NCBI GenBank assembly: GCA_023426865.1
Contig: JAEZBT010000024.1
Coordinates: 1 to 47,060 of the forward strand
Source: Actinomycetes bacterium
Lineage (GTDB): Bacteria; Actinomycetota; Actinomycetes; Actinomycetales; Cellulomonadaceae
Reading direction: 5' to 3'
DNA: 47,060 bases
Part shown: piece by piece, positions 2,694-40,883 of the stretch
Position numbering within the stretch: the first letter of the stretch is position 1
Layout of the letters: each line of letters starts with the position of its first letter
Position numbers and translations under genes: made by a program
The notes under the pieces: model-generated
Told to the model about the DNA's origin: nothing
Seen by the model: only the letters and a program-made list of their open reading frames with translations
The model's database searches: none

Positions 2694-2753
2694 CAACCCC
2701 CCTCGCAAACGGCCGGGATACGACCACGGAACGGCCTGCACACGCCCTATCTT
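2694..2753 (+). promoter_or_regulatory. Variant regulon box (CAACC-N17-GGATA) with -10 TATCTT
   Basis: One mismatch to YAACY-N17-RGTTR. The -10 at 2748-2753 is at the same offset as in the other copies, and a GTG start follows at 2761. Confidence 0.6.
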
Positions 2754-2760
2754 CCCCTGC

Positions 2761-3177
2761 GTGAAGTCATCGCCCTCCTCCATCGCTCTCGCCGCCCTGC
2801 TCCTTGTCGCCGGGACGTCCGGCGCGGCCGACTTTGTTCCAGCCGACCAGGCATTCGCGTTCCATCTGGCCCGGCAAGGGAGCAGCTACGCGGTGGTGGC
2901 CAACGTCCGCCCTGGCTTCGCTCTCTACGCCGACAAGCTGACGATTCACGGCGAAGGAACCGGCCCCATCGAAGCTGCGCTTCCGCCGGCTGACGTGATC
3001 GATGACCCGGCTGAGGGCACTACCCGCGTGTACCTCACGCCGGTGGCCGTCCCACTGCGATTCCTTACGCCGACCGGACGACCGTCAGCGGGCGCGATCT
3101 TGGTGCGATACCAGGGCTGCCAGATCGATCAGGTCTGCTATCCGCCACGGACCGTGGCCCTGAACGTGTGGGGCTGA
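2761..3177 (+). CDS. Secreted stand-alone DsbD N-terminal domain protein
   Basis: Signal peptide, FVPADQAF, PGFALYADKL and YQGCQIDQVCYPP (the nDsbD YQGC-x5-CYPP redox motif). Start reassigned to GTG 2761. Confidence 0.8.
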   Translation: MKSSPSSIALAALLLVAGTSGAADFVPADQAFAFHLARQGSSYAVVANVRPGFALYADKLTIHGEGTGPIEAALPPADVIDDPAEGTTRVYLTPVAVPLRFLTPTGRPSAGAILVRYQGCQIDQVCYPPRTVALNVWG

Positions 3178-3443
3178 CCGTGCGGAATCTCCTCGTCCGT
3201 CCAGGACAGTGGTATCGCGCGGGCGGCAAAGGGCCACAGAAGCGCCGAGTGGTTGCGATCGGCCCCGAGCACCGGCCGCGCACGGAGGAGCTGGGTACGC
3301 CGTCGAACGACGCGCTCGGAGTCCTGTTTGTCCATCCAAATGGTTCGCAAGGCCGAACCACGCTGAGCCAGTTCCAACGCTGGGCAGCCTTACCGCTGCC
3401 TCCCGAGTTCAACCACCCCGCGCGGCACCGCCGCACCCGATAA
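3168..3443 (+). CDS. Hypothetical protein
   Basis: 91-aa ORF that overlaps the upstream stop and fills the gap to the next gene. Confidence 0.45.
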   Translation: MGLTVRNLLVRPGQWYRAGGKGPQKRRVVAIGPEHRPRTEELGTPSNDALGVLFVHPNGSQGRTTLSQFQRWAALPLPPEFNHPARHRRTR

Positions 3444-3457
3444 AGGAAGTTTGTCTG

Positions 3458-4144
3458 ATGAAGCACCTCGTCCTCTCCGCACTCGCCGCTGGCTGCATCT
3501 TCGCAAGCACCGCCGGCGACGCCGACGCAACACAGTTCAACTACGACTACCTGGACGTCCGCCTTGGACAGGTAGACATCAAGGACGCCAGTGAGAAGCT
3601 GGATGCCGTGGAAGTCGAGTTCTCGGCACGCCCCGTCCAGTCCCTGCTGCTGAAGGGCGGCATCACCTTCGGCGAACTGGGCGAAGGCGACCTGGACGTC
3701 TCCGCTCGTACTGCCTACATCGGCCTGGGCACCGTCGTGCCGGTCCACCAGAAGGTGGACATCATCGGCAGCACAGCCTATCGCTGGACCAGCCTGAACC
3801 TGGACTACGACGACAGCGATGTGGCCCTGAAGGGTAAGGCCAACGTGGACTCGTGGTCGACTGAGTTCGGGATCCGCAGCAATCCCGTTGCCAAGCTGGA
3901 TCTGGAGCTGTCGGTCGGCTATGAGCGCTTCCTCGAAGCCGAGCTGCGCAACGTGCGTGCCAGCATTGGCGACCAGGCCGAGTCGATCGATCGCGTGGAC
4001 ATCAGCGATGAGCTGGACTCCAGCGACACCTTCTTCCGCCTCGGCGCCCGATACCCGATCTCGCGCACCTGGGACGCCTCCTTCAGTACCGTCCGCTACA
4101 GCGACTTCAACATTTACTCCATCGGCGTGCGCGCGAACTTCTGA
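3458..4144 (+). CDS. Outer-membrane beta-barrel protein (Ax21/Omp1X-like)
   Basis: AAGGAAG RBS, signal peptide MKHLVLSALAAG, mature start FNYDYLD, alternating beta-strands, C-terminal Phe (GVRANF). Confidence 0.75.
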   Translation: MKHLVLSALAAGCIFASTAGDADATQFNYDYLDVRLGQVDIKDASEKLDAVEVEFSARPVQSLLLKGGITFGELGEGDLDVSARTAYIGLGTVVPVHQKVDIIGSTAYRWTSLNLDYDDSDVALKGKANVDSWSTEFGIRSNPVAKLDLELSVGYERFLEAELRNVRASIGDQAESIDRVDISDELDSSDTFFRLGARYPISRTWDASFSTVRYSDFNIYSIGVRANF

Positions 4145-4171
4145 TCGCCAACCCGCCGCCAGCTGCAAGAG

Positions 4172-4205
4172 AAGAAGCCGGGCCCTGCCCGGCTTCTTTG
4201 TTCTT
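4172..4205 (+). terminator. Intrinsic terminator
   Basis: AAGAAGCCGGGC-cct-GCCCGGCTTCTT followed by TGTTCTT. Confidence 0.8.
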
Positions 4206-8109: not shown

Positions 8110-8156
8110 AGTCAATTCGTTAGGGGCGTTATCCACAGGCAATCCCATTTGGGACT
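8110..8156 (+). promoter_or_regulatory. IHF-like site, perfect DnaA box and TCCCA-N2-TGGGA palindrome (copy 1)
   Basis: AGTCAA-TTCG-TTA (8110-8122), TTATCCACA (8129-8137), AATCCCATTTGGGACT (8141-8156). Confidence 0.75.
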
Positions 8157-9423: not shown

Positions 9424-9470
9424 ATACAATCGGTTAGCCTCACTATCCACAGCCAGTCCCAGATGGGATT
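9424..9470 (+). promoter_or_regulatory. IHF-like site, DnaA box (1 mismatch) and TCCCA-N2-TGGGA palindrome (copy 2)
   Basis: ATACAA-TCGG-TTA (9424-9436), CTATCCACA (9443-9451), AGTCCCAGATGGGATT (9455-9470); same internal spacing as copy 1. Confidence 0.7.
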
Positions 9471-9842
9471 GGAGTTCGCACAGGTCCGCGGTGCTACCGC
9501 TGCACGGCACCCTCCTGACGCGTAACCTGCGGCGTGGAACCGGGGGCCAACGCATGGGCGAGGCTGCTCGCCGAGGCGTCGGCACGCCCGCCGGAGCCAT
9601 GCGGCGCTAAGGTGGCTCGGACAAGCGCAACCTGCGCGTCGATCTTGAGCTGCTGCACGGGCCGAACGGGCAGCGCAGAGGCTCGCCATGTTCACCGGCC
9701 CGCCAGGACCTACGTGAAAGCATCGAGTACCTGGGCGGGCTTGCAACCCAGCGTCGCAGAAGTGGCGGTACGGCTGAGATCTGCCGTCCAGGTAGAGCCG
9801 GCCGCCCCCAAACAAAACGGTGCGCTTGCCGGTGAACAGGGT

Positions 9843-10499: not shown

Positions 10500-10559
10500 C
10501 AACCCAGCCGGCATGGACCTCAGTTGCTGGTGAGGGGGAGGGGTGCCAGAGTCCATAAT
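10500..10559 (+). promoter_or_regulatory. Regulon box with -10 CATAAT
   Basis: CAACC-N17-AGTTG (10500-10526), -10 at 10554-10559. Confidence 0.75.
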
Positions 10560-11604: not shown

Positions 11605-12114
11605 ATGCAACACATGGAGCAGCCTGATACCCCGTCCGACCTGTCCGTAGTCCTCGCCTTGCGCGAGGGCGGACTGCGGCAGCGCGCCGTAGGGCAACAG
11701 CTACAACTCAGCCGGGCTCGAGCGGCAAACCTGGAGCGTGTCGCCAAGGCGCTCCGCCGCAATCCAACCTGGGCGACCTGGGTCGCCGCGGGCAAGCTGA
11801 GTCGGAAGCACATTGAGGCGGTGGCCAGCCTGCCAGCAGACGCGGCCGACAGGCTGCTGCGCGAAGCGATTGCAGGCGGCTGGCGAGCAGAGCTCCTCCG
11901 AAAGCAGGTGCGTGTGGCTCGCGGCCACCGCGATGAGGACCAAGCGCACCCGGATCCAAACGTGGCACACCTCGAGAACCGGCTCAGCGAGCTTCTGGGC
12001 ACGAAGGTGGTGCTCAAGACCAGGCCGCAGGGCGGGGGAGAGCTGATCCTCCGCTACACCGATTACGAGACCCTTGACGGCCTCCTGGAGCGACTGGGGT
12101 ACCGGGAGGGCTGA
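11605..12114 (+). CDS. Truncated chromosomal-type ParB (HTH and C-terminal dimerisation domain, no CTPase domain)
   Basis: HTH LRQRAVGQQLQLSRARAANLER, GKLSRKHIEAV, and C-terminus DPNVAHLENRLSELLGTKVVLK...GGELILRYTDYETLDGLLERLG typical of Spo0J. No GxRR box. Confidence 0.8.
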   Translation: MQHMEQPDTPSDLSVVLALREGGLRQRAVGQQLQLSRARAANLERVAKALRRNPTWATWVAAGKLSRKHIEAVASLPADAADRLLREAIAGGWRAELLRKQVRVARGHRDEDQAHPDPNVAHLENRLSELLGTKVVLKTRPQGGGELILRYTDYETLDGLLERLGYREG

Positions 12115-12120: not shown

Positions 12121-12180
12121 CAACTGCCGGGTAACTCGGCCGGGTTGCGACGGCACAGCACCGCGCGGCCTTCCTACCAT
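12121..12180 (+). promoter_or_regulatory. Regulon box with -10 TACCAT
   Basis: CAACT-N17-GGTTG (12121-12147), -10 at 12175-12180. Confidence 0.75.
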
Positions 12181-12184: not shown

Positions 12185-13324
12185 GTGACCCACCTCAGGT
12201 TGCAGCCCATCGTTACCGGACACCCCTTGGCGTCGAGTCCGCCCAGCACTATCGGGGACGTCGACAGGATCATCGACCTCTACTACTACGAGTCGGTACC
12301 GGCAGCGCATCCCTCATTGAAGGCCGGGGGCGCCGGGTCCTACTGCTATTACGGTCCCCCAGAATGTGTGCGCCTGGCAGGGACAGAGTTGGAGGGGTGG
12401 GTCACCGGGCTCATGGAGCACGTGGCCGCCAAGCAAAGGTCCGGAGAGGACTTCCGCATCCAGTACGACGGCCGCTACTGGCGTGCTTGCCGTGACGTTT
12501 CGGACGCCGGCACGCAAGTCAGCGTTAGGCGGCTGCCCGATGACTGTCCGCACCTCGACGGTCTGTCCTTCGAGGCCCCGGTGGTCCGCGACATCCTGAT
12601 GGGGGAGTGGCTGAACGATGGCGGCCTGATCCTGTTCTCGGGACTGACCGGTCAGGGCAAGACGACTACTGCAGCGGCAACCGTCCGCTCACGCCTGGAA
12701 GCAATGGGGGGGCGGGCCGTGTGCGTAGCTGACGTCAATGAAATCGCTGCCTTGGAGGGCGTTTGGGACAAAGGGTCCTGCCGCCAGCTCAACGTCGACT
12801 ACCAAACGGACGACCCAGCGCGGCGTGGCTTCATCGGCGCAATCCGGCGTGCGTACAGGAGCATGCCCGCTACGCGACCAGGGCTGCTCCTTGTTGGTGA
12901 GGTCCGCGACGCTGAAACGGCGTCGGAGGTCCTTAAGGCATCCTCGAACGGGATGCTCTGCATAACGACAATACACGCCTTCGACCCGATCTCGGCGCTT
13001 CTCAGACTCGCGTCCTTGGCCGAGCAACAGATGGGTGATACCGCAAACCTCGCCTTGAGCCAAGCGCTCAGAGTGGTGGTACACCAAACCCTCACCCTCG
13101 CGCCCGACGTAGCCGGGTGGAGCCGGGGCCATTTCAGCCAGGCATTGCTGGTAAGCGACGGGCCGCAGCACGCACTTGCGAACCTCATTAGGAAGTCAGC
13201 ATACCCGCACATGGCGGCGATAGCGGACACCCAGCGGATCCGCATCGAGCAGGCCAGCCGTCGGGCGACCCCGGTCGATCACTTGATGCGGATGTTGGGC
13301 TCGGGTGGCGACGGAATGGGTTAA
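12185..13324 (+). CDS. PilT/DotB-like secretion ATPase (paralog 1)
   Basis: Walker A GLTGQGKTT, Walker B LLVGEVRD, His box TTIHA; Asp box altered (CVADVNE). Start uncertain. Confidence 0.8.
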   Translation: MTHLRLQPIVTGHPLASSPPSTIGDVDRIIDLYYYESVPAAHPSLKAGGAGSYCYYGPPECVRLAGTELEGWVTGLMEHVAAKQRSGEDFRIQYDGRYWRACRDVSDAGTQVSVRRLPDDCPHLDGLSFEAPVVRDILMGEWLNDGGLILFSGLTGQGKTTTAAATVRSRLEAMGGRAVCVADVNEIAALEGVWDKGSCRQLNVDYQTDDPARRGFIGAIRRAYRSMPATRPGLLLVGEVRDAETASEVLKASSNGMLCITTIHAFDPISALLRLASLAEQQMGDTANLALSQALRVVVHQTLTLAPDVAGWSRGHFSQALLVSDGPQHALANLIRKSAYPHMAAIADTQRIRIEQASRRATPVDHLMRMLGSGGDGMG

Positions 13325-13381
13325 CCCCGGGCGCACAGGCTGGGGTTGGCCAACCGGTCGCCTGGGAGGGCAGGGCACCAT
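13322..13381 (+). promoter_or_regulatory. Regulon box with -10 CACCAT
   Basis: TAACC-N17-GGTTG (13322-13348), -10 at 13376-13381, ATG at 13388. Confidence 0.7.
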
Positions 13382-13387: not shown

Positions 13388-13936
13388 ATGGATACCTCCG
13401 ACAAGGCAAACCAGGACCTGGGCACGGCCGCACAGGCCGCCTTCATCGAACAGCTTGCCGGAGCCCTCGGCTTTGCTGACGTCGCTGCTGCGCTGACCAG
13501 CTTGGGTATGGCTGCTCCATTAACGGTGAAAGAAGCGAGCCAGGCGATCGACAGGCTCAAGGCGAAGCTCCCGGCTCAGGAGGAGCATGGCCGCCGGAAG
13601 TTCCTGACGGCACGTCATCTGCTTCTCATCGACCGCGGCGAGATGAGCGCGCCAGATGATCTCGACACCGACGCAGCCACGGTCCTGCAGCGGCTGGCGA
13701 AGCTGAGGGAGGTCGAGCGTGTCCTCCAAATGCCCGCCCAGTGGGGTGGCGCCAACCGCGGCGGCCCTATCCTGGTTGAGCATCTTGTGCAGCACTTTGG
13801 CAGCCTGGAATCTGTGGCTGCCGCCTTCGGGGTGAGCCTGAGCACGGTCAAGGGCTGGGGTGCGGTCCTGCCCGAGCAGAAGAGCTACGAGGCGGAGGTA
13901 AAGACGCGAGGTTGGGTATGCGCCGCGCGCTCCTGA
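13388..13936 (+). CDS. Protein with a C-terminal Cro/YdaS-like HTH
   Basis: LVQHFGSLESVAAAFGVSLSTVKGWGAVLPEQKSYEAEVKTRG fits the Cro-like HTH pattern. Confidence 0.7.
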   Translation: MDTSDKANQDLGTAAQAAFIEQLAGALGFADVAAALTSLGMAAPLTVKEASQAIDRLKAKLPAQEEHGRRKFLTARHLLLIDRGEMSAPDDLDTDAATVLQRLAKLREVERVLQMPAQWGGANRGGPILVEHLVQHFGSLESVAAAFGVSLSTVKGWGAVLPEQKSYEAEVKTRGWVCAARS

Positions 13937-15347: not shown

Positions 15348-15407
15348 TAACCCCCCCTCAATCAGGCCTAGTTATCCGCCGGTCTGAAGGGCGGCGACAC
15401 CTAAGCT
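15348..15407 (+). promoter_or_regulatory. Regulon box with -10 TAAGCT (pil operon promoter)
   Basis: TAACC-N17-AGTTA (15348-15374), -10 at 15402-15407. Confidence 0.78.
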
Positions 15408-24505: not shown

Positions 24506-24565
24506 TAACCCCGCCGGAATTGCATCTGGTTGGCGGCCTGCGCGGGCGCCCGGGCAGCCTATCGT
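24506..24565 (+). promoter_or_regulatory. Regulon box with -10 TATCGT
   Basis: TAACC-N17-GGTTG (24506-24532), -10 at 24560-24565. Confidence 0.75.
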
Positions 24566-26541: not shown

Positions 26542-26559
26542 GGCACGCGCGACCGAAGC

Positions 26560-27855
26560 ATGTGGATCAACAACCTCACGGCCTACCACCTCGACTTTGC
26601 CCGCCCCGACGAATGGGCTGAGCAATTCTCGGAGTACCTGGTTAAGACGCCCGAACTAGGCGCGCGGCGCGCGATCGGCTTTGCACGGGACGCTCAGGGC
26701 AATCTCGTGGACCACGTGGCTCCCCACTACGCGTTCCAGGCGGCGCAGGCAGAGCGCCACTTGCCGCGGGATGCGGTCGAGCGAGAGGTCCGCCTGCGAA
26801 ACCTGGCACCAGACCCGGCGGACGCCAAGGCTTACAAGAAGGCGTGGGCAGACGTGGAGCAGGAGCTCCTGGCATCTGCTCCGGTTCGGGAGAAGGCGAT
26901 CCCGGCAATCTTCGACGAGGAGGCTAAACGCCTCTACGTATTCGGCAGCTCCTCGAGCGCCGAGCAAATCGTTCTGCCCGCAATGCGGTTGGCCCTGGGT
27001 AGCACGCAGGCGCGGCCGATCCGGCCCGCGGATGGCGTCGGCAAGCTGCTGAATCGCTGGCTCGAGCAGGGCGCGCTCCCGCAGCCTTTCGCGCTGGGGC
27101 GGCATGTTGAGCTGCGCGAGGAGGGCAAGGACGGCGGCAAGGCGACCTTCCACGGGCGCGACATTGGCAGCCCCGAGGTTCAGCGCCACCTGGAGAACGG
27201 CGATTACGTCACCCTGCTGGAGCTCAGCTGGCGTGGCCAGCTGACCTTCCGGCTCACCATGAAGGGCGAGGTCCGGTCCATCGCCCCTCCCGAGTGCCAG
27301 ATGAAGGCGCAGTACGCGTTCGCCATCTGGCCAGAGATCATGGACAGGCTGCCGCACTTCTTTGACGAGGTGATGGCACTGTTGGGTGGGGTCCGCTCGG
27401 ACGCGATTGTGGCTGTAGAACGGAAGCGCCGCGGCGAGCAAGCCGGCGACGCCGTAACTGATGGCGCCGATGTGGGGCATACGCAACCGGAGGTGGACAG
27501 CGCGGCGCCGGCCGGGGTACGTGTGGCCGTCGTGTTGGAAGGCGACCGTGAGCAAGCTCTCACTGTCCGGGATGGACTGGACGCGCTGGCCACGGAAAAG
27601 GCTTTGGCGGAGATCGTGATCCCGGACATCGGGAACGACCTCATGCGCATGGCATACCACTGGGCCAGGACGCGTGGTATCCGAGTACGACTGATCAGAA
27701 AGGGCGATCGCACGCCAGAGGCACGCGCTGACCAGGTGTTCGGCTGCAAACCCCATGGACTGGTGGCCTTCGGGCAATCGCCGGAAGCCGACCTCTACAT
27801 GGAGCGCGCTAAGGCCAACCGCGTCCGCGTGCGCCGCCTGGACCTCCTCCGCTAA
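26560..27855 (+). CDS. RdgC-like recombination-associated protein with an extra C-terminal SLOG-like domain
   Basis: MWINNLTAYHL, AERHLPRDAVEREV, EQELLASA, FALGRHVEL, EVQRHLENGDYVTLLELSWRGQLTFRL follow RdgC; about 115 extra residues at the C-terminus. Confidence 0.78.
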   Translation: MWINNLTAYHLDFARPDEWAEQFSEYLVKTPELGARRAIGFARDAQGNLVDHVAPHYAFQAAQAERHLPRDAVEREVRLRNLAPDPADAKAYKKAWADVEQELLASAPVREKAIPAIFDEEAKRLYVFGSSSSAEQIVLPAMRLALGSTQARPIRPADGVGKLLNRWLEQGALPQPFALGRHVELREEGKDGGKATFHGRDIGSPEVQRHLENGDYVTLLELSWRGQLTFRLTMKGEVRSIAPPECQMKAQYAFAIWPEIMDRLPHFFDEVMALLGGVRSDAIVAVERKRRGEQAGDAVTDGADVGHTQPEVDSAAPAGVRVAVVLEGDREQALTVRDGLDALATEKALAEIVIPDIGNDLMRMAYHWARTRGIRVRLIRKGDRTPEARADQVFGCKPHGLVAFGQSPEADLYMERAKANRVRVRRLDLLR

Positions 27856-27912
27856 CCGCGGGTGACAAAGTGCCGGTTAACGACGCTCCGGACGCCGGCG
27901 CCGGGTGAGAAT
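27853..27912 (+). promoter_or_regulatory. Regulon box with -10 GAGAAT
   Basis: TAACC-N17-GGTTA (27853-27879), -10 at 27907-27912. Confidence 0.7.
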
Positions 27913-28520: not shown

Positions 28521-29258
28521 ATGCACCAGTTCAGCCAGATCCAGCACCTCCTCGAGCAGCTGCGTCTGCGCCTCGAGCCTTACCAGGTGGTCGGCGTCCG
28601 GACGGATTACACGGTGAGCAGCAGCACTGGGAACAGCCTGCGCTGCCTGGTGCCAGAGAAGCACGGCATGGCCGTCCGGTACGCCGTGCTCTCGCCGCGC
28701 GAGGGCACTCGTCGGCACGGTCTCGGGGCGCTCGAGAAGTACCTTGGGGTCAAGGATCCGGTCGAGGGGAACACGATTCTCGACCTGGCCCATGAGCTGT
28801 CCGAAATCAACGACCTCGGTTCCTGGCCCTTGGCCAGCGACGAGCGGTCGGAGATTGTGGCCACGTCGACCGGAGTTGGGGGCAGGGGGTATCGCCGCCT
28901 ACCTGGTGTCGAGCAGGCCTTCCGCAACATGGCAGATGCCATGCCGTCGATCAGTGAGATCGTGCTGACCGTCAACACTGGCAGCAGGAAGCAGACGTTA
29001 AAGAGCACCAAGACCTGGGCGTCTTTCCGGGACCGTTCCGGTGATGAGCTGTGCGCCCTGACCCTTGGCCAGCTTGCGCTTTCCCTCAAGAAGTGGTTTG
29101 CGGAAGGCGATGCCGATCGTCCGATTGCCGACCGTCACCTCGGCCGCTGGGCCAACCAGCTCAACACCGACCAGAGTCGGTTCATCGAAGCGGCAATGGA
29201 ACTGATCAAGCTCGACAGCATCCTGGGCGTGACCCGCATCCAGTTCGACGGAGTCTGA
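28521..29258 (+). CDS. Hypothetical protein
   Basis: GGAG RBS, 245 aa, operonic, no motif recognised. Confidence 0.75.
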   Translation: MHQFSQIQHLLEQLRLRLEPYQVVGVRTDYTVSSSTGNSLRCLVPEKHGMAVRYAVLSPREGTRRHGLGALEKYLGVKDPVEGNTILDLAHELSEINDLGSWPLASDERSEIVATSTGVGGRGYRRLPGVEQAFRNMADAMPSISEIVLTVNTGSRKQTLKSTKTWASFRDRSGDELCALTLGQLALSLKKWFAEGDADRPIADRHLGRWANQLNTDQSRFIEAAMELIKLDSILGVTRIQFDGV

Positions 29259-29260
29259 GC

Positions 29261-30066: not shown

Positions 30067-31857
30067 ATGGAGATTAAGCCCAGCGACGAACAGCTCGCCG
30101 CGATCGCATGCTACGAGACAGGCGAGAACCTGGCGATCGAGGCCTTGGCCGGCTCAGGGAAGACGACCACACTGCGCATGCTGGTGGAACGCGGATCCCC
30201 GCGCGGTGGGAAGATCCTTTACACGAGCTTCGCCAACAAAGTTATCGCTGACGCGAAGGGCAAGTTCCCCAAGAGCGTGCGGGTGTCGACCATCCACGCC
30301 CTCGCGTGGCCGGTCGGCGTCAAGTATCAGCAGCAGGGCCGCTTGCGAGGGCGCATCACCCCCAACGACCTTCTCACAAGACTCGGGTGGTCCGATCTGG
30401 ACTTTGGCCACGGCATCGACGCGTGCACCGGTGCTCACTGCGTGATTCAAACCTTGGCCAACTTCTGCCAGGGGGCCGACAGGACCATCACTGCAAAGCA
30501 CGCCATGGGAAGCGCGCTGCGGGCGTGTCGCGGCGACAAGAGCTCGAGTCGGGAAGCTGCCCAGGTGATTACCAAGAAGGCTGCCGACGTGTGGGCTTCG
30601 ATGATGCTGCCCACATCGTCGATGCCTGTAACTCATGACGTCTATCTGAAGGAGTGGGCGCTGGCTGAGCCGCGTCTGCCGTACACGACGATCATGACGG
30701 ACGAATGCCAGGATTCCTCGGCCCTATTCGTTGAGGTGCTCCGCAATCAGAAGCATGCCCAGCTCGTGATCGTTGGTGATGCCCGCCAGAGCATCTACTC
30801 GTGGCGCGGCTCGGTCAACTCCATGGATAGCTTTCAGATCGCTCATCGGGTACAGCTGACACAAAGCTTCCGCTTCGGCCCAGAGATCGCGGAGGTTGCC
30901 AATGCGATCCTGCACGACCAGTGCGGCGCCGACCTACCGCTGAGGGGTGATCCGAATCAGCCCGGCTTCGTCTCGGTCTGCGATACCCCGCACTGCTACC
31001 TGGCCCGAACCAATGCGAGCTTGATCGGGCAGCTTTTTGAGGTGCAGCGTGACGCCCCGGGCTACAAGGTCGGCGTGGTCGGCGGCGTCGACGAGATGGT
31101 CAAGCTGGTCGACGCCGCCGAGCAGCTGCAGGCCGGCATTCCAACTGCCCATCCGGAGCTGGCTGAGTTTGCGCATTGGCAGGCTGTCCGTGAGGCGATC
31201 GCGCATGACGGCTACGCCCATCTGCGCATGCTGGTGCGCGTAGTTGATGAGTTCGGGAGCCGGCAGCTGCGGGAGAGCTTGGAGCGGATCCGCGGGAACG
31301 AGGCCGAGCCGGAAACCTGCGATGTAATGCTGTCCACCGCCCACAAGGCCAAGGGCTCGGAGTTCGAGACCGTCAAGCTGCTGGACGACTTCAAAGTGAA
31401 AGGGCCCGAGGCCAATCCCGGCCTGTTCGGATGGGCGCCGGAGGAGGGCAACCTACTTTACGTCGCCGTGACCAGGGCGCGGGTCCATCTGGACATCAGC
31501 GATTGCCAGGCCGTTCTGGCCAGCCTTCCTGTAGGCTGGATGCCCAGCTTTCCAGTGCCAGAGTCGGTGGTTGACGACTACGACATGGCGTCCATCGCGC
31601 TGGGCGAGGAGCCGTCGCCGCCGGCGTGGCGCCGCCCCCGCCTCGAGGCCGGCGTGTGGGACCACCCGATCATCGCCGATGCGACGCTAGAGATCAGCGA
31701 AGAAGCGGAGGGGTACCTGGTCCGAGTGGTCGCTGCGGGCGGCGTCCTGTTCGAGACCTGGGGCGACCTCAGTGACGTGGGTGCAGAGATTGGAGGCCGC
31801 GTTGACGTGACCGTGGGCAACGCTCGTCTGCATGTGCCTCGCGCCGCCCTGACGTAA
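30067..31857 (+). CDS. UvrD/REP-like SF1 helicase
   Basis: ALAGSGKTT, DECQD, VGDARQSIYSWRG, LTQSFRFG, STAHKAKGSEF and LLYVAVTRA. Confidence 0.92.
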   Translation: MEIKPSDEQLAAIACYETGENLAIEALAGSGKTTTLRMLVERGSPRGGKILYTSFANKVIADAKGKFPKSVRVSTIHALAWPVGVKYQQQGRLRGRITPNDLLTRLGWSDLDFGHGIDACTGAHCVIQTLANFCQGADRTITAKHAMGSALRACRGDKSSSREAAQVITKKAADVWASMMLPTSSMPVTHDVYLKEWALAEPRLPYTTIMTDECQDSSALFVEVLRNQKHAQLVIVGDARQSIYSWRGSVNSMDSFQIAHRVQLTQSFRFGPEIAEVANAILHDQCGADLPLRGDPNQPGFVSVCDTPHCYLARTNASLIGQLFEVQRDAPGYKVGVVGGVDEMVKLVDAAEQLQAGIPTAHPELAEFAHWQAVREAIAHDGYAHLRMLVRVVDEFGSRQLRESLERIRGNEAEPETCDVMLSTAHKAKGSEFETVKLLDDFKVKGPEANPGLFGWAPEEGNLLYVAVTRARVHLDISDCQAVLASLPVGWMPSFPVPESVVDDYDMASIALGEEPSPPAWRRPRLEAGVWDHPIIADATLEISEEAEGYLVRVVAAGGVLFETWGDLSDVGAEIGGRVDVTVGNARLHVPRAALT

Positions 31858-31914
31858 CCGCGGACGCATGAGTGGGGGTTGGGTGAGGACATTTCCGCGG
31901 CGCCTCATTAACCT
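31855..31914 (+). promoter_or_regulatory. Regulon box with -10 TAACCT
   Basis: TAACC-N17-GGTTG (31855-31881), -10 at 31909-31914. Confidence 0.72.
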
Positions 31915-33723: not shown

Positions 33724-33783
33724 CAACCCGGGGCCGATCCGGCGTGGTTAGCGAGGTGTCCGGGGGGTGGAGCTGTCTAGGAT
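33724..33783 (+). promoter_or_regulatory. Regulon box with -10 TAGGAT
   Basis: CAACC-N17-GGTTA (33724-33750), -10 at 33778-33783. Confidence 0.75.
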
Positions 33784-33803
33784 GAGGGCCACTGAATGCT
33801 GGT

Positions 33804-34823: not shown

Positions 34824-34917
34824 CTCTGGCCAGCGGCCACCGGTAGCAAGATGCAGCGGCCAGAACGGGCCCGGGCGATCCGGGCGGCGAACTTACGCAG
34901 GGCGGGAGATTTGACAG

Positions 34918-35385
34918 ATGGCGAGAGGAGTCAACACGGTTCACCTGATCGGTGGGATTGGCGCGGCGCCGGAGGTCAAGGTGACCCAGGGCGGCCTGAC
35001 CATCACTACCGTGCGACTCGCCACGGACACCGTGCGAAAGGGCCACGACGGCCAGCAGGTGGTCAAGACGCAGTGGCATCGCGTCAAGTTCTTCGGGCGG
35101 CTAGGAGATCTGGCCGCGGACCTGATCGATAAGGGCAAGATGGTGTATGTCACTGGCAGCATCGACTACGACCAGTACACCAAGCCGGACGGGAGCAAGG
35201 TGTACACGACCGAGATCCACGCGTCTGGATTCGAGCTGCTCGGTGGCCGGGAACAGGGGTCCAGCCACGCGGGATCGAGTCGGAGCGGCCCCAACGACGA
35301 GCACGAGGCCGATCATGCCTATGGCCAGCCGCAGTATCAGGGTGCGGCCGCCCTCGGCCCCGATTTCGGGGACGAGAATTTCTAG
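34918..35385 (+). CDS. ssb: Single-stranded DNA-binding protein
   Basis: MARGVNTVHLIG, TQWHRVKFFGRL, KGKMVYVTG, YTTEI and acidic tail DFGDENF. Confidence 0.95.
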   Translation: MARGVNTVHLIGGIGAAPEVKVTQGGLTITTVRLATDTVRKGHDGQQVVKTQWHRVKFFGRLGDLAADLIDKGKMVYVTGSIDYDQYTKPDGSKVYTTEIHASGFELLGGREQGSSHAGSSRSGPNDEHEADHAYGQPQYQGAAALGPDFGDENF

Positions 35386-35477
35386 TTCAAGGACGCGTCG
35401 TCGCCTGGCAACACTGGTAACTGGCACGCCTTAAGCCCGGTCGAGCTTCGGGAGGTGTATGCCGCCGCGCGTCGAGC

Positions 35478-35521
35478 CCGCAACGAAAGAGCCCCGCGTA
35501 AGCGGGGCTCCTTCGTTGCGG
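35478..35521. terminator. Probable bidirectional terminator between convergent genes
   Basis: CCGCAACGAAAGAGCCCCGC-gtaa-GCGGGGCTCCTTCGTTGCGG. Confidence 0.7.
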
Positions 35522-35533
35522 CAGGACTGAGGT

Positions 35534-36070
35534 TTAGGAGAAGGCGCGAATTGCTTCGCTGCCCGCCTCGCCGAAGTCGGTGGCCAAGTAGTCCGCCAGC
35601 ACCGCGGCGAGCTGTGCGGCCAGGGCCTTTGCCATGGCGGGGTTGTCCGGATTGTGCAGCTGGCGCGTGACCACTCTCATGAGGCTCTGGGGAAAGTTCC
35701 CTGTAGAAGCTAGCAGCGAGGTCACGACTCGAGAAAGAGTGTCTTGGTGTGCCGTGCCAGCGCTGGCCCCGTCCGGGTAGAGGCAGACCTCCAGTTGTCG
35801 CTGCCCCGTCCGACCCACAAAGCTGCGTGCAGCGAAGCCATGGCCCGACACCTGGCCCATGAGGAGAGATTCGCCCATGCTGCCGCTGCAACCAGGAACC
35901 GCAATATCCGCTGTGATGTCCGGGGCGAGAGCATCGAACAGCGGCACAAGCGGCCTCTCGGCGGGTCCTGCGCTGTAGAGCAGGCGAAGGCATCCCCCCT
36001 CCATGGTTGCCGATGTGGTTGCACCGAGCTGGGCTGTCAGGTGTTCGAGGATCGCTTGCTGCGCGGTCAT
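35534..36070 (-). CDS. Hypothetical protein
   Basis: AGGAG RBS, MTAQQAILEHL..., preceded by a regulon promoter on the minus strand. Confidence 0.75.
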   Translation of the reverse strand: MTAQQAILEHLTAQLGATTSATMEGGCLRLLYSAGPAERPLVPLFDALAPDITADIAVPGCSGSMGESLLMGQVSGHGFAARSFVGRTGQRQLEVCLYPDGASAGTAHQDTLSRVVTSLLASTGNFPQSLMRVVTRQLHNPDNPAMAKALAAQLAAVLADYLATDFGEAGSEAIRAFS

Positions 36071-36094
36071 GGGGAGTCTCCTGCAATTGAGAAA

Positions 36095-36213
36095 AGCCTA
36101 AGCGGTTGCGGCCAGCACCCGGCCCGCTAACTGGCGCTGACTCCGCCGCGGTTAACCAGGCGTGTTCGCCCCGGAGTTGGGCAGGCGACGCGAGGCCTGC
36201 CGGCGACTACAGT
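36095..36213. promoter_or_regulatory. Back-to-back regulon boxes driving divergent promoters
   Basis: Box 36128-36154 with minus-strand -10 TAGGCT (36100-36095); box 36153-36179 with plus-strand -10 TACAGT (36208-36213). The two boxes share GTTAAC. Confidence 0.75.
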
Positions 36214-36244
36214 TCCTGCCATGACTCCCGCGTGGAGCTTTCGA

Positions 36245-36338
36245 CCGGGCGATTCCCGGAAACACCCCGCGGGGCTCTTCCCGCAGGGGAGGCGCTCCGC
36301 CCTGAAGGTCCGCACCGGACCAGGAGCGCTACATCATG
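36245..36338 (+). repeat. Conserved structured 5' leader motif (copy 2)
   Basis: CCGGG-cgatt-CCCGG-AAA-CACCCCGCGGGG (36263-36274) CTCTTCCC-gca-GGGGAGG...TCCGC...CAGGAGCGCTACATCATG. Confidence 0.65.
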
Positions 36339-36476
36339 TTCAAGTTCAAAGTCGTTACCCGCCAGGGGTCCTTCGAGGTCGAGGCCACCTGCAGCATTGC
36401 TGCGGAGCTTGAGATCGAGGACCAGGGCCTGGGCGTTGCCATCGACGTCATCCCGTTGGGGGTGGGTCATGTCTGA
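36336..36476 (+). CDS. Small acidic hypothetical protein (46 aa, absent from the ORF track)
   Basis: AGGAG RBS; MFKFKVVTRQGSFEVEATCSIAAELEIEDQGLGVAIDVIPLGVGHV; overlaps the next start. Confidence 0.65.
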   Translation: MFKFKVVTRQGSFEVEATCSIAAELEIEDQGLGVAIDVIPLGVGHV

Positions 36477-36741
36477 GGTCGCCGTTTGCAAGGTTCTGGC
36501 TACCGCCCCCGGCGGCTACCTGGCCACCGTCACACCGGCTGGTGGCCCCCGCGGCTACGCGGCGATCCGAAGCGGATCAGCGCCGACCATCGACGAAGCC
36601 ATCGGACGTGCCATGGGGCGGCCGGGACTGCGCTTTGCCAGCGACAGCGACGAACGCGAAGCCCAGATCCTGACGTTCCGCCAGCGCGCCTTCAGTGTGC
36701 TAGCTAAGGACGACAAGCTCTGCACCATCGGCTTGCGCTGA
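36469..36741 (+). CDS. Hypothetical protein
   Basis: MSEVAVCKVLATAPGG...; translationally coupled to the upstream small ORF. Confidence 0.6.
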   Translation: MSEVAVCKVLATAPGGYLATVTPAGGPRGYAAIRSGSAPTIDEAIGRAMGRPGLRFASDSDEREAQILTFRQRAFSVLAKDDKLCTIGLR

Positions 36742-36795
36742 TCAAACCATCGAAGGGGTGCATCGCCAGGGCGATGGCACCCGTGGAGCACATGC

Positions 36796-37239
36796 ATGGA
36801 CTACGAGAGTTACAACGCGGCATGGGGGGTGATCAGCCCGCTGATGCTGAAGCGTCTGGAAGAGCTTTCGGACGTATTCGGCGAGCACAGCGTCTCGATG
36901 ACCGAGCCCCGGCAGTCTGGCGACGAGGAGTGGTCGCACAGCGTCGAGCTGATGAGGGATGGCGAGGTTATCGCATCGCTGGATTTCACGCTGCACGATG
37001 GTGACGTGTACGGGGAGGAGGGGTTCTCCACCTCGCTGACCTGGTCGGCGGCGGACGGCGACCTGCCGGCCCACCGCTGGGCACCGTACGTCTACACCCC
37101 GGAGGCGTTCTCCCAGGACCTCGCCGAGATCCAGCGGCGGATTGAGCGGGAGCTGGACCCAGGCATCATCTGCGCCACAGTGATGGCAGACCTGCTGGTC
37201 TTGGCCCATCGCACAGAGGCGCCAGCCGCCACACCGTAG
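36796..37239 (+). CDS. Acidic hypothetical protein
   Basis: GGAG RBS, 147 aa, very D/E-rich, followed by a terminator. Confidence 0.75.
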   Translation: MDYESYNAAWGVISPLMLKRLEELSDVFGEHSVSMTEPRQSGDEEWSHSVELMRDGEVIASLDFTLHDGDVYGEEGFSTSLTWSAADGDLPAHRWAPYVYTPEAFSQDLAEIQRRIERELDPGIICATVMADLLVLAHRTEAPAATP

Positions 37240-37245
37240 TACCCC

Positions 37246-37277
37246 AACCCCCTGCAGCATGCTGCAGGGGGTTTTCT
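37246..37277 (+). terminator. Intrinsic terminator
   Basis: AACCCCCTGCAG-catg-CTGCAGGGGGTT followed by TTCT. Confidence 0.85.
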
Positions 37278-37299
37278 ATGCCTGAGTGGGGCTGGCAGG

Positions 37300-37360
37300 T
37301 AACCCCCCACCCATCGGCCCGGGTTGGCCCAGCTTGGGCTGGGGGGGGAGGGCTTACAGT
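37300..37360 (+). promoter_or_regulatory. Regulon box with -10 TACAGT
   Basis: TAACC-N17-GGTTG (37300-37326), -10 at 37355-37360. Confidence 0.72.
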
Positions 37361-37391
37361 CCTCAGGTCTCAGTAGACCTTGCTCGCATTC

Positions 37392-38879
37392 ATGAAGAAG
37401 ACCGCACTGTCCCTGGCCCTCGCAACCGTGCTCATTGCCGGTGCCCCGACTGCCATGGCAGCGACCGCATCCACGATCGCCAGTGTCGCTGCCCGTGCCG
37501 ACGGAGGTGACGTCGAGGCGATGTACGAGGCCGGCCGCTATTACTTGGCCACCGGCGAAGTGCCCCGCGGCATCTTGTACCTGGAGAGCGTCATCCGGTC
37601 GGGGGCAGCAACTGGTGCGTACGCCCACGCCGCCCTCGCCGATTACTACGAGGGTAGCCGTCATCAGCAGGTCGCCCGCGAGGCCATGTACTACCACCTG
37701 CAGCAGGCCGCGGTGAAGGGCGACGTTGCTTCACAGGTGAAGCTCGGCAAGGAGCTGCTGGCCCAGGCTCGCATTCCCGGCACCGACCCGGCTACGCGCT
37801 CCCAGAATCAGAATCAGGCCCGCGTGCTGCTCGAGCATGCCTTCAATGCCGGCGACGAGAGCGAGGCTGGCTATCTACTGGGCCACGCTCTGCTGACTGG
37901 TGACGGACAGGCGACTGACACGATGGGCGGGCAGGCATGGCTGGCCAAGGCTGCGCAGCGCGGTCACACCCGGGCGGCGGCCGAGCTGGCCAACCACTAC
38001 GTGGCGACCGGCAACGGGGCTAGCGCCAAACCGTATTTCGAGCTCGCCGCCAACGCCGGCGACGGCAATGCCATGCTGGCCCTGGCAAATGGCCATCTGG
38101 ATGGCTCCCTTGGAGCGCCGAGCCCGGGTGAGGCAAGGAAGTGGGCAGAGCGTGCAGTTGCCGCCGGTGTCGCCGGCGCCACGACCGTCCACCAACTCGC
38201 CCAGTCGGCAAGTGCTTCCGCCACCAGCCCGGCGGTCATCGTCCGCCCGCCGGCCGCTGCCCCGGCGGCAGCCAACGAGGATCGCGGCTTCGTCGCACGT
38301 CTGCGCGGCATCTTTGGCCGCAAGGAGCGGGACTATCCGGCTGTGAGCAACCGCTACGAGCCGGAGAACGGAATCATAGCCGCCTCGCCAGAAGACGAGG
38401 CCGAGGTTCTGCGTCGCAAGGTGGCGCAGCTGGAAGCGATCGTTACTGACCTTGCCGGCGGAGGGGAGCGCGCACGGGTGGCGCGCGCCCAGTCCGTGGA
38501 CCTTTCCCTCGAGTACCAGGACCTGCGTGATCCCCTGACCACGAACCAGCGTGGCCTGGACGCCCATGCGGCCGGCAACTATGCCGAGGCCTACCGCTAC
38601 TTCAGCCGGGCCGCCCGGGGCGGCGATGTCGATGCAATGAACAACATGGGTCTGCTGCTGCTGCAGGGCCTGGGCGTCGAGCAGAATACGTCGAAGGCCA
38701 TGGAGATGTTCCGAAGGGCATCCGAGATGGGCCATGCAACCGCGGCACATAACATCGGTTACATGTATGAGAACGGCGTGGGCGTCCGTCAGGACATCAG
38801 TCGGTCCCGGGTGTGGTACCGCCACTCGGCAACCATGGCTCGCCGCGCTGGGCAGGTGATGACGGCACAGGCCTACTGA
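37392..38879 (+). CDS. Secreted Sel1-repeat (SLR/TPR) protein
   Basis: Signal peptide MKKTALSLALA; multiple Sel1 repeats (AMNNMGLLLLQGLGVEQN, AAHNIGYMYENGVGVRQD). Confidence 0.9.
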   Translation: MKKTALSLALATVLIAGAPTAMAATASTIASVAARADGGDVEAMYEAGRYYLATGEVPRGILYLESVIRSGAATGAYAHAALADYYEGSRHQQVAREAMYYHLQQAAVKGDVASQVKLGKELLAQARIPGTDPATRSQNQNQARVLLEHAFNAGDESEAGYLLGHALLTGDGQATDTMGGQAWLAKAAQRGHTRAAAELANHYVATGNGASAKPYFELAANAGDGNAMLALANGHLDGSLGAPSPGEARKWAERAVAAGVAGATTVHQLAQSASASATSPAVIVRPPAAAPAAANEDRGFVARLRGIFGRKERDYPAVSNRYEPENGIIAASPEDEAEVLRRKVAQLEAIVTDLAGGGERARVARAQSVDLSLEYQDLRDPLTTNQRGLDAHAAGNYAEAYRYFSRAARGGDVDAMNNMGLLLLQGLGVEQNTSKAMEMFRRASEMGHATAAHNIGYMYENGVGVRQDISRSRVWYRHSATMARRAGQVMTAQAY

Positions 38880-38907
38880 CTACTTCTCCCAGGAAGGGAG
38901 GCGGGTG

Positions 38908-38975
38908 GGGGGCGGGTCTTCGGGTCCGCCCCTTTTTCATGGCCGGAAAAAGAAAGGCGCCCCGAAGGGCGCCCA
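38908..38975. terminator. Two opposed intrinsic terminators
   Basis: GGGGCGGG-tcttcggg-TCCGCCCC-TTTTT on the plus strand; AAAAAGAAA-GGCGCCC-gaa-GGGCGCC acts on the minus strand. Confidence 0.8.
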
Positions 38976-38989
38976 GTGATACAGGTCTC

Positions 38990-40675
38990 TCAGGTGGCCT
39001 GCTTAACGCTCAGGACACCTTGCTCATCGAACTCCAGTAGGAAGCGACTGCCCTTCAGGGCGTTCGGGAACCTACGCGGCAGACCATTATCCAGCATGCT
39101 CCTCAGGAGACCCACCGGGTCCGGACTGAGGATAGCCTGCCGGACAGCGGCAATCGCCTGACAGGTCACATACTCCACATGCTCGTCGTGGCGATCATCA
39201 CTGTCGGTGAAGGTGACGATGTTCCGCGCGGCGACCCACGGGTCCGTTTCGGGAGTCACGTAGAGCACGTTGTTGTCAGCGTCGTAGCGCGCGGCAATCT
39301 CAACCTCCGCACGAACGAGCGGCCGCAACTGAAGCGGGATCTCTTCGGCGGTTGCATCGCCCGGGTCCCACTTGGCCAGGATCTTATCGACCACGCACAA
39401 CGCCGTGGGCGTTCCGAAGATCATCACCTCGTCGCTCCCAAGGCTGTTGCCAACCCGCCACGAGAACTGGTACGGCTCTACGCTTTGCGTATGCGCACGA
39501 GACCAGTGCCAGAACGGCGCCCGACCGTCGGTAGCCAGTACACCAGCCCCGTGGACGAACTGCCTACACAGCAGGTACTCCTGCTCATCCGCGTAGTCCT
39601 CGAACTCCATGAGGCCATGCTTAGCCACAGCGTCACGGGTCCAATCCTCACTCGGATAATCGCGGCCATCCTCCACATGCTGCTGGAGGACAGGGTCACC
39701 CTCGAAGGTCCAAGCCCAGTGCCCGGGGAAGCGGGACAGCGAATTCAAGAGGTCCTTCATTCCCAGCTTTAGGGCCTCTCCGTAGTGCTCCGCGCAGAAC
39801 GCCTCTTCGGACATTACGCGCCGGCGCTCCTCCAGGAACGAGATCCGAAGGGCTCGGAGCTCTTCCGTGATCGTCTTGCTCGCACTCTCCGCGTCGACCA
39901 GATAGGCCCGGTCGGGCATCCTGCCCTTGAAAGCGGTGGGGTCGAGGTGGACGACCGACTTGCTCGTGTGCACAAGGTCGTGATGCCCCTCCCATACGTG
40001 GATCGGGAGGCCCTGGAGGTAGTAGGTCGCAAGGGCGTCGGTCTCGACGGTCACGCGCGAAACGTGGCCGATCGATGCAGCGATCACCTCGAGGTTCTCA
40101 AGTGCATCGGGACGAGGAAGCTCCTCGCCATCCAGGAACACTGGGATGGGAAAGCCCCGAACCAGCTTGCGCAGATACGCGCGGACGTGAGCGGCGGTGC
40201 CGAAGTTGTAGTCGTGGAGCCGGAACTCGGTAACACCGAGATCCGCGCTGTCGTTGACCGGCACGGCCTTCAGGTCCTGCAGGTCCTGGGTCATCGCGTA
40301 GACGTGCTTGCCCAGCGACATGATCCCCAATGCCTTGCAGGCAAAGATGGCGGCGCAGAGTCCCATGCCATACGGGCCCTCGGCCTCCTGGATCCCCTGG
40401 TCCCAGCCGGACTTGGCCAGCGAGAAGAGGATCCCGAAGTCGCTGATGCCGCAGCCATTGTCCTGCACGACGACCACGTCATCGGTCACGAAGAAATCGA
40501 CGTGGGTGGCACCGGCGCGGCGGGCATTCTGGAGTAGCTCGCCCAGCACGACCAGCTTGCCGCTGAAGGTGGCACCGATACCGCGAAGCACGCTTCTGGG
40601 ATCGGCCGTGACCTGGATGGAGCTGGGGGCATTGCCCTGCTCGGTGGCGGGGCAGTTGTTGGAATCGAACGTCAT
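38990..40675 (-). CDS. GHKL (HATPase_c/HSP90-like) ATP-binding protein
   Basis: AGGAG RBS; ELLQNARRAGA (N box), QDNGCGI (G1 box), PYGMGL (G2 box). Start reassigned to ATG 40675. Confidence 0.85.
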   Translation of the reverse strand: MTFDSNNCPATEQGNAPSSIQVTADPRSVLRGIGATFSGKLVVLGELLQNARRAGATHVDFFVTDDVVVVQDNGCGISDFGILFSLAKSGWDQGIQEAEGPYGMGLCAAIFACKALGIMSLGKHVYAMTQDLQDLKAVPVNDSADLGVTEFRLHDYNFGTAAHVRAYLRKLVRGFPIPVFLDGEELPRPDALENLEVIAASIGHVSRVTVETDALATYYLQGLPIHVWEGHHDLVHTSKSVVHLDPTAFKGRMPDRAYLVDAESASKTITEELRALRISFLEERRRVMSEEAFCAEHYGEALKLGMKDLLNSLSRFPGHWAWTFEGDPVLQQHVEDGRDYPSEDWTRDAVAKHGLMEFEDYADEQEYLLCRQFVHGAGVLATDGRAPFWHWSRAHTQSVEPYQFSWRVGNSLGSDEVMIFGTPTALCVVDKILAKWDPGDATAEEIPLQLRPLVRAEVEIAARYDADNNVLYVTPETDPWVAARNIVTFTDSDDRHDEHVEYVTCQAIAAVRQAILSPDPVGLLRSMLDNGLPRRFPNALKGSRFLLEFDEQGVLSVKQAT

Positions 40676-40765
40676 GTTGCTATCTCCTGAGATTGCGGAG
40701 ACAGCAGCCCCTGGCGGGGATGCGTGTCCCCGCGGGGTGGGTGTGTATCCGGCTACGGGCCGGTC
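40673..40765 (-). repeat. Conserved structured 5' leader motif (copy 3)
   Basis: Minus strand: CCGG-cccgtag-CCGG-ATACACAC-CCACCCCGCGGGGACACGCATCCCC-gcca-GGGGCTGCTGTCTCCGCAATCTCAGGAGATAGCAACATG. Confidence 0.75.
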
Positions 40766-40789
40766 CGACGCCAGGGGCGTGGTGCGCCC

Positions 40790-40883
40790 ATTGTGCGTTG
40801 GGTGCGGGGATGCGGCGACGGTGCAACCCTCGCCCATCGGGCCGGGGTTGCGAGCCGATCGAGGCGGGGCACCCGGCAATACT
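40790..40883. promoter_or_regulatory. Single regulon box serving divergent promoters (relaxase and GHKL gene)
   Basis: CAACC-N17-GGTTG (40824-40850); plus-strand -10 AATACT (40878-40883); minus-strand -10 CACAAT (40795-40790). Confidence 0.7.

Follow-up and report, generated by a model that had tools for sequence, protein, structure and literature searches.

A 27-bp box of the form YAACY-N17-RGTTR recurs across a 47,060-bp stretch of DNA, hereafter the window, and stands 27 or 28 nt from a −10-like hexamer. The window is the entire contig C335 of G000, a fragmented metagenome-assembled genome of 2.62 Mb in 488 contigs (68.7% complete), and by its gene content it is a fragment of a MOBH conjugative plasmid. 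The box is a real, selected cis-element. The promoters that it marks very probably depend on an activator and form one regulon, with each box as the predicted site for a two-fold symmetric, plasmid-encoded transcription activator. For the fuller statement, in which this regulon is read by an FlhDC-type activator encoded on a plasmid part absent from the contig, we judge the chances to be about even.

A search with YAACY-N17-RGTTR retrieved 12 exact matches in the window, and a one-mismatch variant starts at 2694 (Table 1), exactly as listed in the original prediction, which was made from the DNA letters without database searches. Chance would supply 0.19 boxes per window (100 dinucleotide shuffles, with a maximum of 3 and none of the 100 reaching 12), in line with the earlier hand estimate of fewer than one chance match in 47 kb. 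Allowing one mismatch adds four sites, at 2694, 26965, 29153 and 42245, the last three of which are intragenic. The whole assembly contains 13 exact boxes, 12 of them in the window, and the 13th (C360:3545) has a −10-like hexamer on neither side.

The boxes had been placed in gaps between genes or at gene junctions. All 13 boxes, the variant included, contain three coding bases or fewer, and only 7.7% of positions qualify for this (P ~4e-14 for the 12 exact boxes), a test that is partly circular, as the starts of box-adjacent genes in our own gene map were chosen downstream of the predicted −10. Independent of the choice of start codons, boxes 13322, 27853 and 31855 open with a TAA that terminates the preceding gene (13322-13324, 27853-27855 and 31855-31857, respectively), and at these three sites the end of one gene and the promoter of the next are very tightly packed. 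The boxes had also been described as palindromic, which is accurate for the terminal pentamers and not for the interior: the inner 17 nt show a symmetry of 2.46 of 8 in the window, against 2.47 in shuffled spacers. This inner spacer is G+C-rich with an A/T-rich centre, and A occupies position 13 in 9 of 13 boxes. The centres of the half-sites YAACY and RGTTR are separated by 22 bp, which would present both on one face of the helix.

All the hexamers claimed at 27-28 nt from the box edge are present. A TAnnnT-type hexamer stands at this distance from each of the 12 exact boxes and from the variant at 2694, and at 40824 it is found on both sides. When NANNNT was counted per offset along the 24 flanks of the 12 exact boxes, 10 matches fell at offset 27 and four at offset 28, with 0-2 at each of the other 58 offsets (0 to 59); the background frequency of NANNNT is 0.030 per position. 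An ungapped stack of the 13 boxes shows A at +55 in 11 and T at +59 in 10 of them. The claimed lack of a consensus −35 also holds, with no conserved −35 seen in the stack and no site returned by a two-hexamer sigma-70 scan of 24000-41200, a segment containing 8 of the 13 boxes. The hexamers also lack a preceding TGn extension.

This anatomy suggests how the promoters would work. With transcription starting about 7 nt past the hexamer, the box would span approximately −66 to −40 and end shortly before the −35 position. Given a weak TAnnnT −10 with neither −35 nor TGn, RNA polymerase with the housekeeping sigma factor would need the bound activator. Because the box is symmetric, one copy can serve both flanking promoters, as at 40824. 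About 14 promoters would be switched jointly, driving the type IVb pilus, traI-traD, secretion-type ATPases, wall hydrolases, DNA-handling genes and cargo. The gene map agrees with the earlier assignment of boxes to the pilus, relaxase-traD, ATPase, wall-hydrolase and cargo operons, and likewise no box precedes the replication gene trfA or parA; replication (trfA) and partition (parAB) would stand outside the regulon.

Some of the start codons lie very close to the predicted −10. The ATG of traI (40891) is 7 nt past the hexamer, and the sister plasmid described below is alike (G001 C33, ~11543-11551), with homologous N-termini. The ATG of the Cro-like gene (13388) is 6 nt past its hexamer, and the GTG of the DsbD_N gene (2761) lies 6-7 nt past the predicted −10. 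The traI, Cro-like and DsbD_N mRNAs would be leaderless. In the remaining box-driven genes, the −10 is separated from the start codon by 20-37 nt, and a clear Shine-Dalgarno sequence was not seen in those inspected. Three sequencing runs labelled RNA-Seq, which are probably DNA and are known as contigs only, gave no starts, ends or strand information.

The same box in a sister plasmid

A search with the ATPase adjoining box 13322 retrieved G001, a Hydrogenophilales metagenome-assembled genome of 3.6 Mb. It contains 51 exact boxes genome-wide, 36 of which lie on 11 plasmid contigs totalling 202 kb. These contigs are syntenic with the entire window, with protein identities of 26-72%. A hexamer stands at 27/28 nt on at least one side of 32 of the 36 boxes, and on both sides of four (C33:4808, C33:11483, C56:877 and C88:3340). 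NANNNT occupies 27/28 nt in 37 of the 72 flanks, and the other offsets have 0-5 matches except offset 0, which has 12. The arms of the G001 boxes are symmetric over 9-10 nt each, with the consensus tAACCgGCC...GGCCGGTTa.

Positional counterparts in G001 were identified before the Cro-like gene, the pilus cluster, both SLT transglycosylase genes, the genes at 31998 and 33810, the divergent pair at 36.1 kb, the Sel1 gene, and traI with its divergent HATPase gene. Across 11 matched promoter pairs, the half-sites are 87-89% identical, a value partly forced by the search pattern, and identity in the −10 is 74%. It drops to the random level of 28-32% in the spacer (17 nt), in the linker (27 nt) and in the 30-nt stretches upstream and downstream. 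By this comparison, the matched pairs form a phylogenetic footprint of exactly the box half-sites and the −10. The divergent pair at 36128/36153 in the window uses two boxes overlapping by 2 nt, and its G001 counterpart (C33:4808) is a single two-sided box.

The sister plasmid also extends the gene content that the window represents. It carries TraL, TraK, TraB, TraC, TraN, TraF, TraG_N and MobI, and the F-type pore genes and MobI were seen in G001 only. Boxes stand in front of the divergent traL/dsbC, the traC block, traF and traI in G001. In a metagenome contig identical to G001 (L025), the end of C23 runs on into the start of C12; therefore, a second TcpQ/secretin/ATPase cluster lies between the ParB-HTH/C (helix-turn-helix and C-terminal domain) gene and the ATPase-Cro block in the sister plasmid.

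Beyond these two plasmids the box is rare. An order-wide scan of 401 genomes for the box together with its −10 placed G001 alone clearly above a reversed-pattern control (37 vs 2). Four of these genomes are unpublished (G380, G295, G027 and G206), none of which stands out, and the result holds for the other 397 alone. Megablast of 20 kb against public plasmids did not find close relatives, and protein searches reach only Xanthomonas, Rhodanobacter and Dyella megaplasmids with approximately 35-40% identity; in three megaplasmid records that were scanned, boxes are not above control. A metagenome scan with the RdgC-like protein gave no match. The ATPase alignment retrieved three metagenomic loci, one of them identical to G001, and the other two, a 21-kb relative (51% identity) and a 3-kb piece, contain no boxes. 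A lineage-specific box was also sought in Xanthomonas plasmid pXAS220 and rejected, the top dyad being the TrfA iterons and an intergenic-only palindrome count giving nothing. Collectively, scanning the plasmid and its relatives, a check proposed with the original prediction, found the box to be plasmid-specific and to recur with the same −10 spacing in G001.

Table 1. Boxes with their predicted −10 hexamers, and candidate binder genes, in the window (all exact boxes are 27 bp; distances run from box edge to hexamer).
Feature	Coordinates	Strand	Distance (nt)	Hexamer	Genes served and remarks	G001 counterpart
Variant box + hexamer	2694..2753	+	27	TATCTT	CAACC-N17-GGATA, one mismatch; into DsbD_N-like gene (GTG 2761) and outer-membrane beta-barrel gene	
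Box + hexamer	10500..10559	+	27	CATAAT	Just beyond oriV iterons; into 10587-11030, 11080-11499 and ParB-HTH/C gene 11605-12114	C23:13488
Box + hexamer	12121..12180	+	27	TACCAT	Into T2SSE-family ATPase gene (to 13324)	
Box + hexamer	13322..13381	+	27	CACCAT	TAA is the ATPase stop; into Cro-like (13388), amidase and PD-(D/E)XK genes	C12:8048
Box + hexamer	15348..15407	+	27	TAAGCT	Into type IVb pilus cluster 15445-24478	C12:10084
Box + hexamer	24506..24565	+	27	TATCGT	Into SLT transglycosylase, T2SSE ATPase and RdgC-like genes	C12:19782
Box + hexamer	27853..27912	+	27	GAGAAT	TAA is the RdgC-like stop; into second SLT, 28521-29258, RusA and UvrD-like helicase genes	C12:23135
Box + hexamer	31855..31914	+	27	TAACCT	TAA is the helicase stop; into 31998-32738 onward	C12:27398
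Box + hexamer	33724..33783	+	27	TAGGAT	Into 33810-34823 and ssb	C33:2345
Box (36128-36154) + hexamer	36095..36154	−	27	TAGGCT	Leftwards, into 35534-36070(−)	C33:4808(−)
Box + hexamer	36153..36213	+	28	TACAGT	2-nt overlap with box 36128; into 36232-36741 and 36796-37239	C33:4808(+)
Box + hexamer	37300..37360	+	28	TACAGT	Into Sel1-repeat gene	C33:7729
Two-sided box (40824-40850)	40790..40883	both	27 (right); 28 (left)	AATACT (right); CACAAT (left)	Right: traI, traD, DUF4400; left: HATPase_c_3 gene 38990-40675(−)	C33:11483, also two-sided
Possible weak box, uncertain	29153..29212	+	27	CAAGCT	One mismatch (RGTCG); inside the end of gene 28521-29258, upstream of rusA	
Candidate binder, Cro-type	13388..13936	+			182 aa; C-terminal P22-Cro-type helix-turn-helix; box-driven	50% identity
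Candidate binder, tandem ribbon-helix-helix	5569..6066	−			165 aa; last gene of the parA-parB operon; no box before the operon	
Candidate binder, ParB-HTH/C	11605..12114	+			169 aa; ParB helix-turn-helix and ParB C-terminal dimerisation domain, without ParB N-terminal domain; box-driven	

Candidate binders and rival readings

An FlhD/FlhC-type pair is the predicted binder, with roughly equal weight for and against, its genes lying most likely on plasmid DNA outside the contig, where the pore genes of the window's plasmid must also be. Such a complex would be of the AcaCD/SetCD kind found in MOBH conjugative elements. The sister plasmid encodes an FlhD-like protein (PF05247, E-value 2.4e-9), whose 37.8 bits exceed the 27-bit cut-off, and an FlhC-like protein (PF05280, E-value 6.9e-4), which aligns over profile positions 16-162 of 173 and has four cysteines (CxxC...CxxC). 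The pair lies directly upstream of traF, in the order box 3521(−), parM-like gene, 174-aa open reading frame (ORF), flhD, flhC, box 712(−) and traF. The pair stands in a box-driven operon in the sister plasmid, and positive feedback would follow if it binds the box. The original prediction proposed an activator site read by a different, possibly uncharacterised master activator. The activator site is still the best reading of the promoter anatomy. The different activator is no longer needed: an FlhDC-type activator with a new box sequence would be the simpler explanation, because a sister plasmid of MOBH type with an F-type pilus encodes the pair in a box-driven operon and the window lacks that plasmid part.

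Several observations weigh against this pair. The FlhC-like match in G001 is below the Pfam cut-off (19.9 vs 27 bits). FlhD/FlhC were not found in the window or the assembly with Pfam models or with the Xanthomonas and G001 proteins as queries, which counts for little, as mating-pore genes went undetected too, both by Pfam in the window and as homologues anywhere in the bin, and the bin is only 68.7% complete. Xanthomonas plasmids carry the same flhD-flhC-traF block, directly after genes for ParA, ParB and a ribbon-helix-helix protein, and in the scanned ones, which have flhD/flhC-like genes, the boxes are missing (1 and 3 matches vs 3 and 4 for controls); therefore, an FlhDC-like pair does not predict the box. 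Nor does the box resemble the AcaCD sites (TGCCCAAAWWGGGCA-type; PMC4207636, Table 1) or the ICEclc motif. Finally, the two plasmids that bear the box have three further DNA-binding proteins in common.

These three proteins, Cro-type, tandem ribbon-helix-helix and ParB-HTH/C, support a possible reading of distinctly lower probability, in which one of the plasmid's own small DNA-binding proteins binds the box as a symmetric oligomer across two helical turns and serves as master activator. Their identities between the two plasmids are 50, 39 and 50%, respectively. The Cro-like and ParB-HTH/C genes are box-driven themselves, so feedback would be possible. The 165-aa ribbon-helix-helix protein contains two beta-alpha-alpha units (predicted local distance difference test, pLDDT, of 85 in the model), and its base-reading strands are near-identical in the window and G001 (TTVRM/TTVLM and KVIRLT/KVIRLT) and differ in a boxless Xanthomonas plasmid (TSLRM and RYIGLT). 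NikR is a ribbon-helix-helix tetramer that reads half-sites 16 bp apart. However, none of the three proteins has a known activator precedent in the plasmid group. The Cro-like and ribbon-helix-helix proteins also have homologues in 23 Xanthomonas plasmids, and the two of these plasmids that were scanned are boxless. The ribbon-helix-helix operon lacks a box and would be constitutive, and the best folds for the model, F-plasmid relaxosome chains and VirC2 (weak, E-values of 0.03-0.16, template modelling score to target of 0.41-0.63), point to an accessory role at oriT or in partition. In a narrower and slightly more tentative form, the box would be read by the Cro-type protein, which has a large N-terminal domain, or by the tandem ribbon-helix-helix protein of the par operon, recruiting RNA polymerase to either side. 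If true, a small-protein binder would add a new type to the master activators of conjugative plasmids, one that acts in both directions from a single site, and the mRNAs of traI and a regulator would be leaderless.

The family of the 165-aa protein is small and has no Pfam model. A profile search returned 93 hits among 1.84 billion representative proteins, and a word-index search returned one near-identical match only. RHH_1 matches weakly in one of 68 aligned sequences (the window protein and 67 hits). A model from the 68 sequences folds confidently as two ribbon-helix-helix units, compared to a pLDDT of 50 for a two-sequence model. The nearest solved folds are the F-plasmid relaxosome chains (probably TraY), VirC2 and single-chain Arc, all with weak scores. 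On the modelled fold, an accessory function at oriT or in partition looks likelier than that of a master activator. The gene order parA-parB-ribbon-helix-helix is also present in Xanthomonas plasmids of approximately 200 kb.

It is improbable that the box is the operator of a global repressor like KorA/KorB/TrbA of IncP-1, with promoters that fire from the −10 alone. The TrfA replicon and the ParA and ParB homologues in the plasmid fit this idea, and IncP-1 plasmids, which also use TrfA, have a dozen or so dispersed palindromic sites. The KorA/KorB sites of IncP-1 are repressor operators at promoters with a normal −35 and −10. Here, however, the box stops roughly 27 nt short of the −10, on its upstream side, leaving the core promoter clear; the hexamers themselves are weak; and the strict 27/28-nt phasing with missing −35 and TGn is what an activator requires, not a repressor. 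A promoter for an extracytoplasmic function (ECF) sigma factor, with AAC as −35, GTT as −10 and the palindrome an accident, is very unlikely: AAC...GTT at about this spacing does resemble ECF consensus promoters, but the G001 arms are symmetric over 9-10 nt, boxes are used both ways, a separate conserved TAnnnT stands 27-28 nt further on, and no sigma-factor gene was found in the window by Pfam. Structural repeats such as hairpin terminators or repetitive extragenic palindromic-like elements, with no role in initiation, are just as hard to credit, as the inner 17 nt in the window are at chance symmetry, no T-run follows any box and the phased −10 would be left unexplained, even though the boxes lie at gene junctions and some G001 copies are near-perfect 27-nt palindromes.

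Gene content of the window and other repeats

A Pfam scan of the window identified a TrfA-type initiator (8178-9329), parA and parB on the minus strand (7951-6063), and a type IVb pilus cluster with TcpQ-like, secretin, ATPase, PilR-like and PilS pilin genes. Two SLT transglycosylases, three T2SSE-family ATPases, and RdgC-, RusA-, UvrD- and SSB-like genes were also detected. The TraI_2 (MOBH) relaxase (E-value 6e-56) ends at 43782 and is accompanied by TraD and DUF4400, and the best plasmid matches of the window carry a MobH relaxase annotation. C335 is the longest contig of the bin. Its G+C content is 64.8%, compared to a bin median of 73.5%, and 23 contigs of the bin, C335 included, have a G+C content below 67%. 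Given this gap, the host of the plasmid and the purity of the bin are uncertain.

The origin oriV adjoins trfA (9831-10341). It contains seven iterons of GGTTCGATAATTTCRCC type spaced by 22 bp (10145-10341) and four reverse-complement copies (9831-10010). ORF 9534-10106 is therefore probably not a gene. Two similar 42-nt segments, 8113-8154 and 9427-9468, hold DnaA-box-like words of TTATCCACA type. A strong terminator-like hairpin with a T-run (27954-27993, plus strand) follows the predicted transcription start of promoter 27853 (~27919), ahead of the likely SLT start codon, and may be a leader attenuator. A second terminator-like hairpin (33149-33177) lies within the called ORF 32946-33650 and casts doubt on it.

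A second plasmid-wide palindrome, GTCC-N5-GGAC, occurs 15 times in the window, against a dyad expectation of 1.3 and control patterns of 1 and 3. The copies lie at 1547, 3195, 3557, 12439, 16106, 18266, 19136, 27565, 29577, 30390, 33157, 36308, 40400, 41988 and 42579, and 14 of the 15 are intragenic. The spacing is specific, with three copies for N4 and two for N6. The window has 0.32 copies per kb, compared to 0.056 per kb elsewhere in the assembly. In the 202 kb of the sister plasmid (loci L009-L024) the palindrome was counted 93 times, against 11 and 4 for the controls, and a single contig of 33 kb accounts for 33 of these copies. Dispersed loading sites of ParB/KorB type and a modification target are both possibilities for this element.

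Comparison with known activator systems

MOBH conjugative elements are known to fire their transfer genes via one master activator, and few boxes are known (SetCD, AcaCD and ICEclc), all from clinical or model elements. The comparison with these systems draws on extracts of the published reports. In SXT/R391, the genes with a SetCD site in front include traD, traV and traF, and the sites lie directly upstream of a −35 region without a recognisable motif (PMC4344509). The likeness to the window lies in a MOBH element with one element-encoded activator, a box just upstream of a motif-less −35, many tra operons and divergent promoters. The SetCD box, however, is 19 bp and oriented, and divergent promoters there have two back-to-back motifs (PMC4344509), whereas the box described here is 27 bp with symmetric ends, one copy serves both sides, and its binder is a prediction. 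AcaCD of IncA/C controls a plasmid-wide FlhDC-type regulon of tra genes and many genes of unknown function with class II-like geometry (PMC4207636), in which it resembles the regulon proposed here. Its core is a compact palindrome of TGCCC-N5-GGGCA type with an unrelated sequence (PMC4207636), and the half-sites here are 22 bp apart. The SetCD and AcaCD boxes lie at or immediately upstream of the −35 position, and the two motifs are stated to be unrelated to each other (PMC4344509, PMC4207636).

The Escherichia coli FlhD4C2 box, a precedent for wide spacing, likewise has two inverted-repeat arms set apart by a long spacer and stands before activator-dependent sigma-70 promoters. It differs in its 16-bp arms, 10-12 bp spacer, sequence and setting in chromosomal flagellar class II genes (PMC9962212). 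For BisDC of ICEclc, approximately 11 co-activated transfer-competence promoters share a motif, the activator has positive feedback and one component is ParB-like (PMC9286271, PMC12409273). Its 27-bp MEME motif, which has a weakly palindromic 15-nt consensus (S3 Fig), is unrelated to the box here (PMC9286271). BisC/DUF2857 (PF11198) was not found in the assembly at E-values up to 1, and the ParB-like protein of the window has 333 aa, an ordinary size with ordinary ParB matches, unlike BisD with its extra activation domain.

The KorA/KorB system of IncP-1 shares the TrfA replicon and about a dozen dispersed palindromic sites, and the present set differs in leaving rep and par outside and in having no −35. 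The late promoters of phage P2 lack a −35 and have an Ogr site, TGT-N12-ACA, centred near −55, through which a small zinc-finger activator serves the whole gene set. The dyad centred in the −50s and the missing −35 are common to both; the Ogr dyad is shorter.

Collectively, the proposed control is of the SetCD/AcaCD/BisDC kind as far as promoter anatomy tells, but the box is unrelated to the AcaCD Table 1 sites and the ICEclc motif with which it was compared. A description of the box was not found in the literature searched, and the papers among the listed matches for box strings are not about plasmid promoters. The unusual details are one symmetric box used on both sides, a box TAA that doubles as a stop codon, and start codons 6-7 nt past the −10. 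For this uncultured environmental plasmid lineage the spacing rule is exact, 5-N17-5 followed by 27/28 nt to the −10, and the proposed regulon comprises about 14 promoters here and no fewer than 36 in the sister plasmid. The box lets the regulon, and hitch-hiking islands that copy the box, be found by sequence alone, and its interest would rise considerably if the binder is not FlhDC-like. Compared to the systems above, the kind of control is known, while the box is new and the plasmid lineage is environmental and new.

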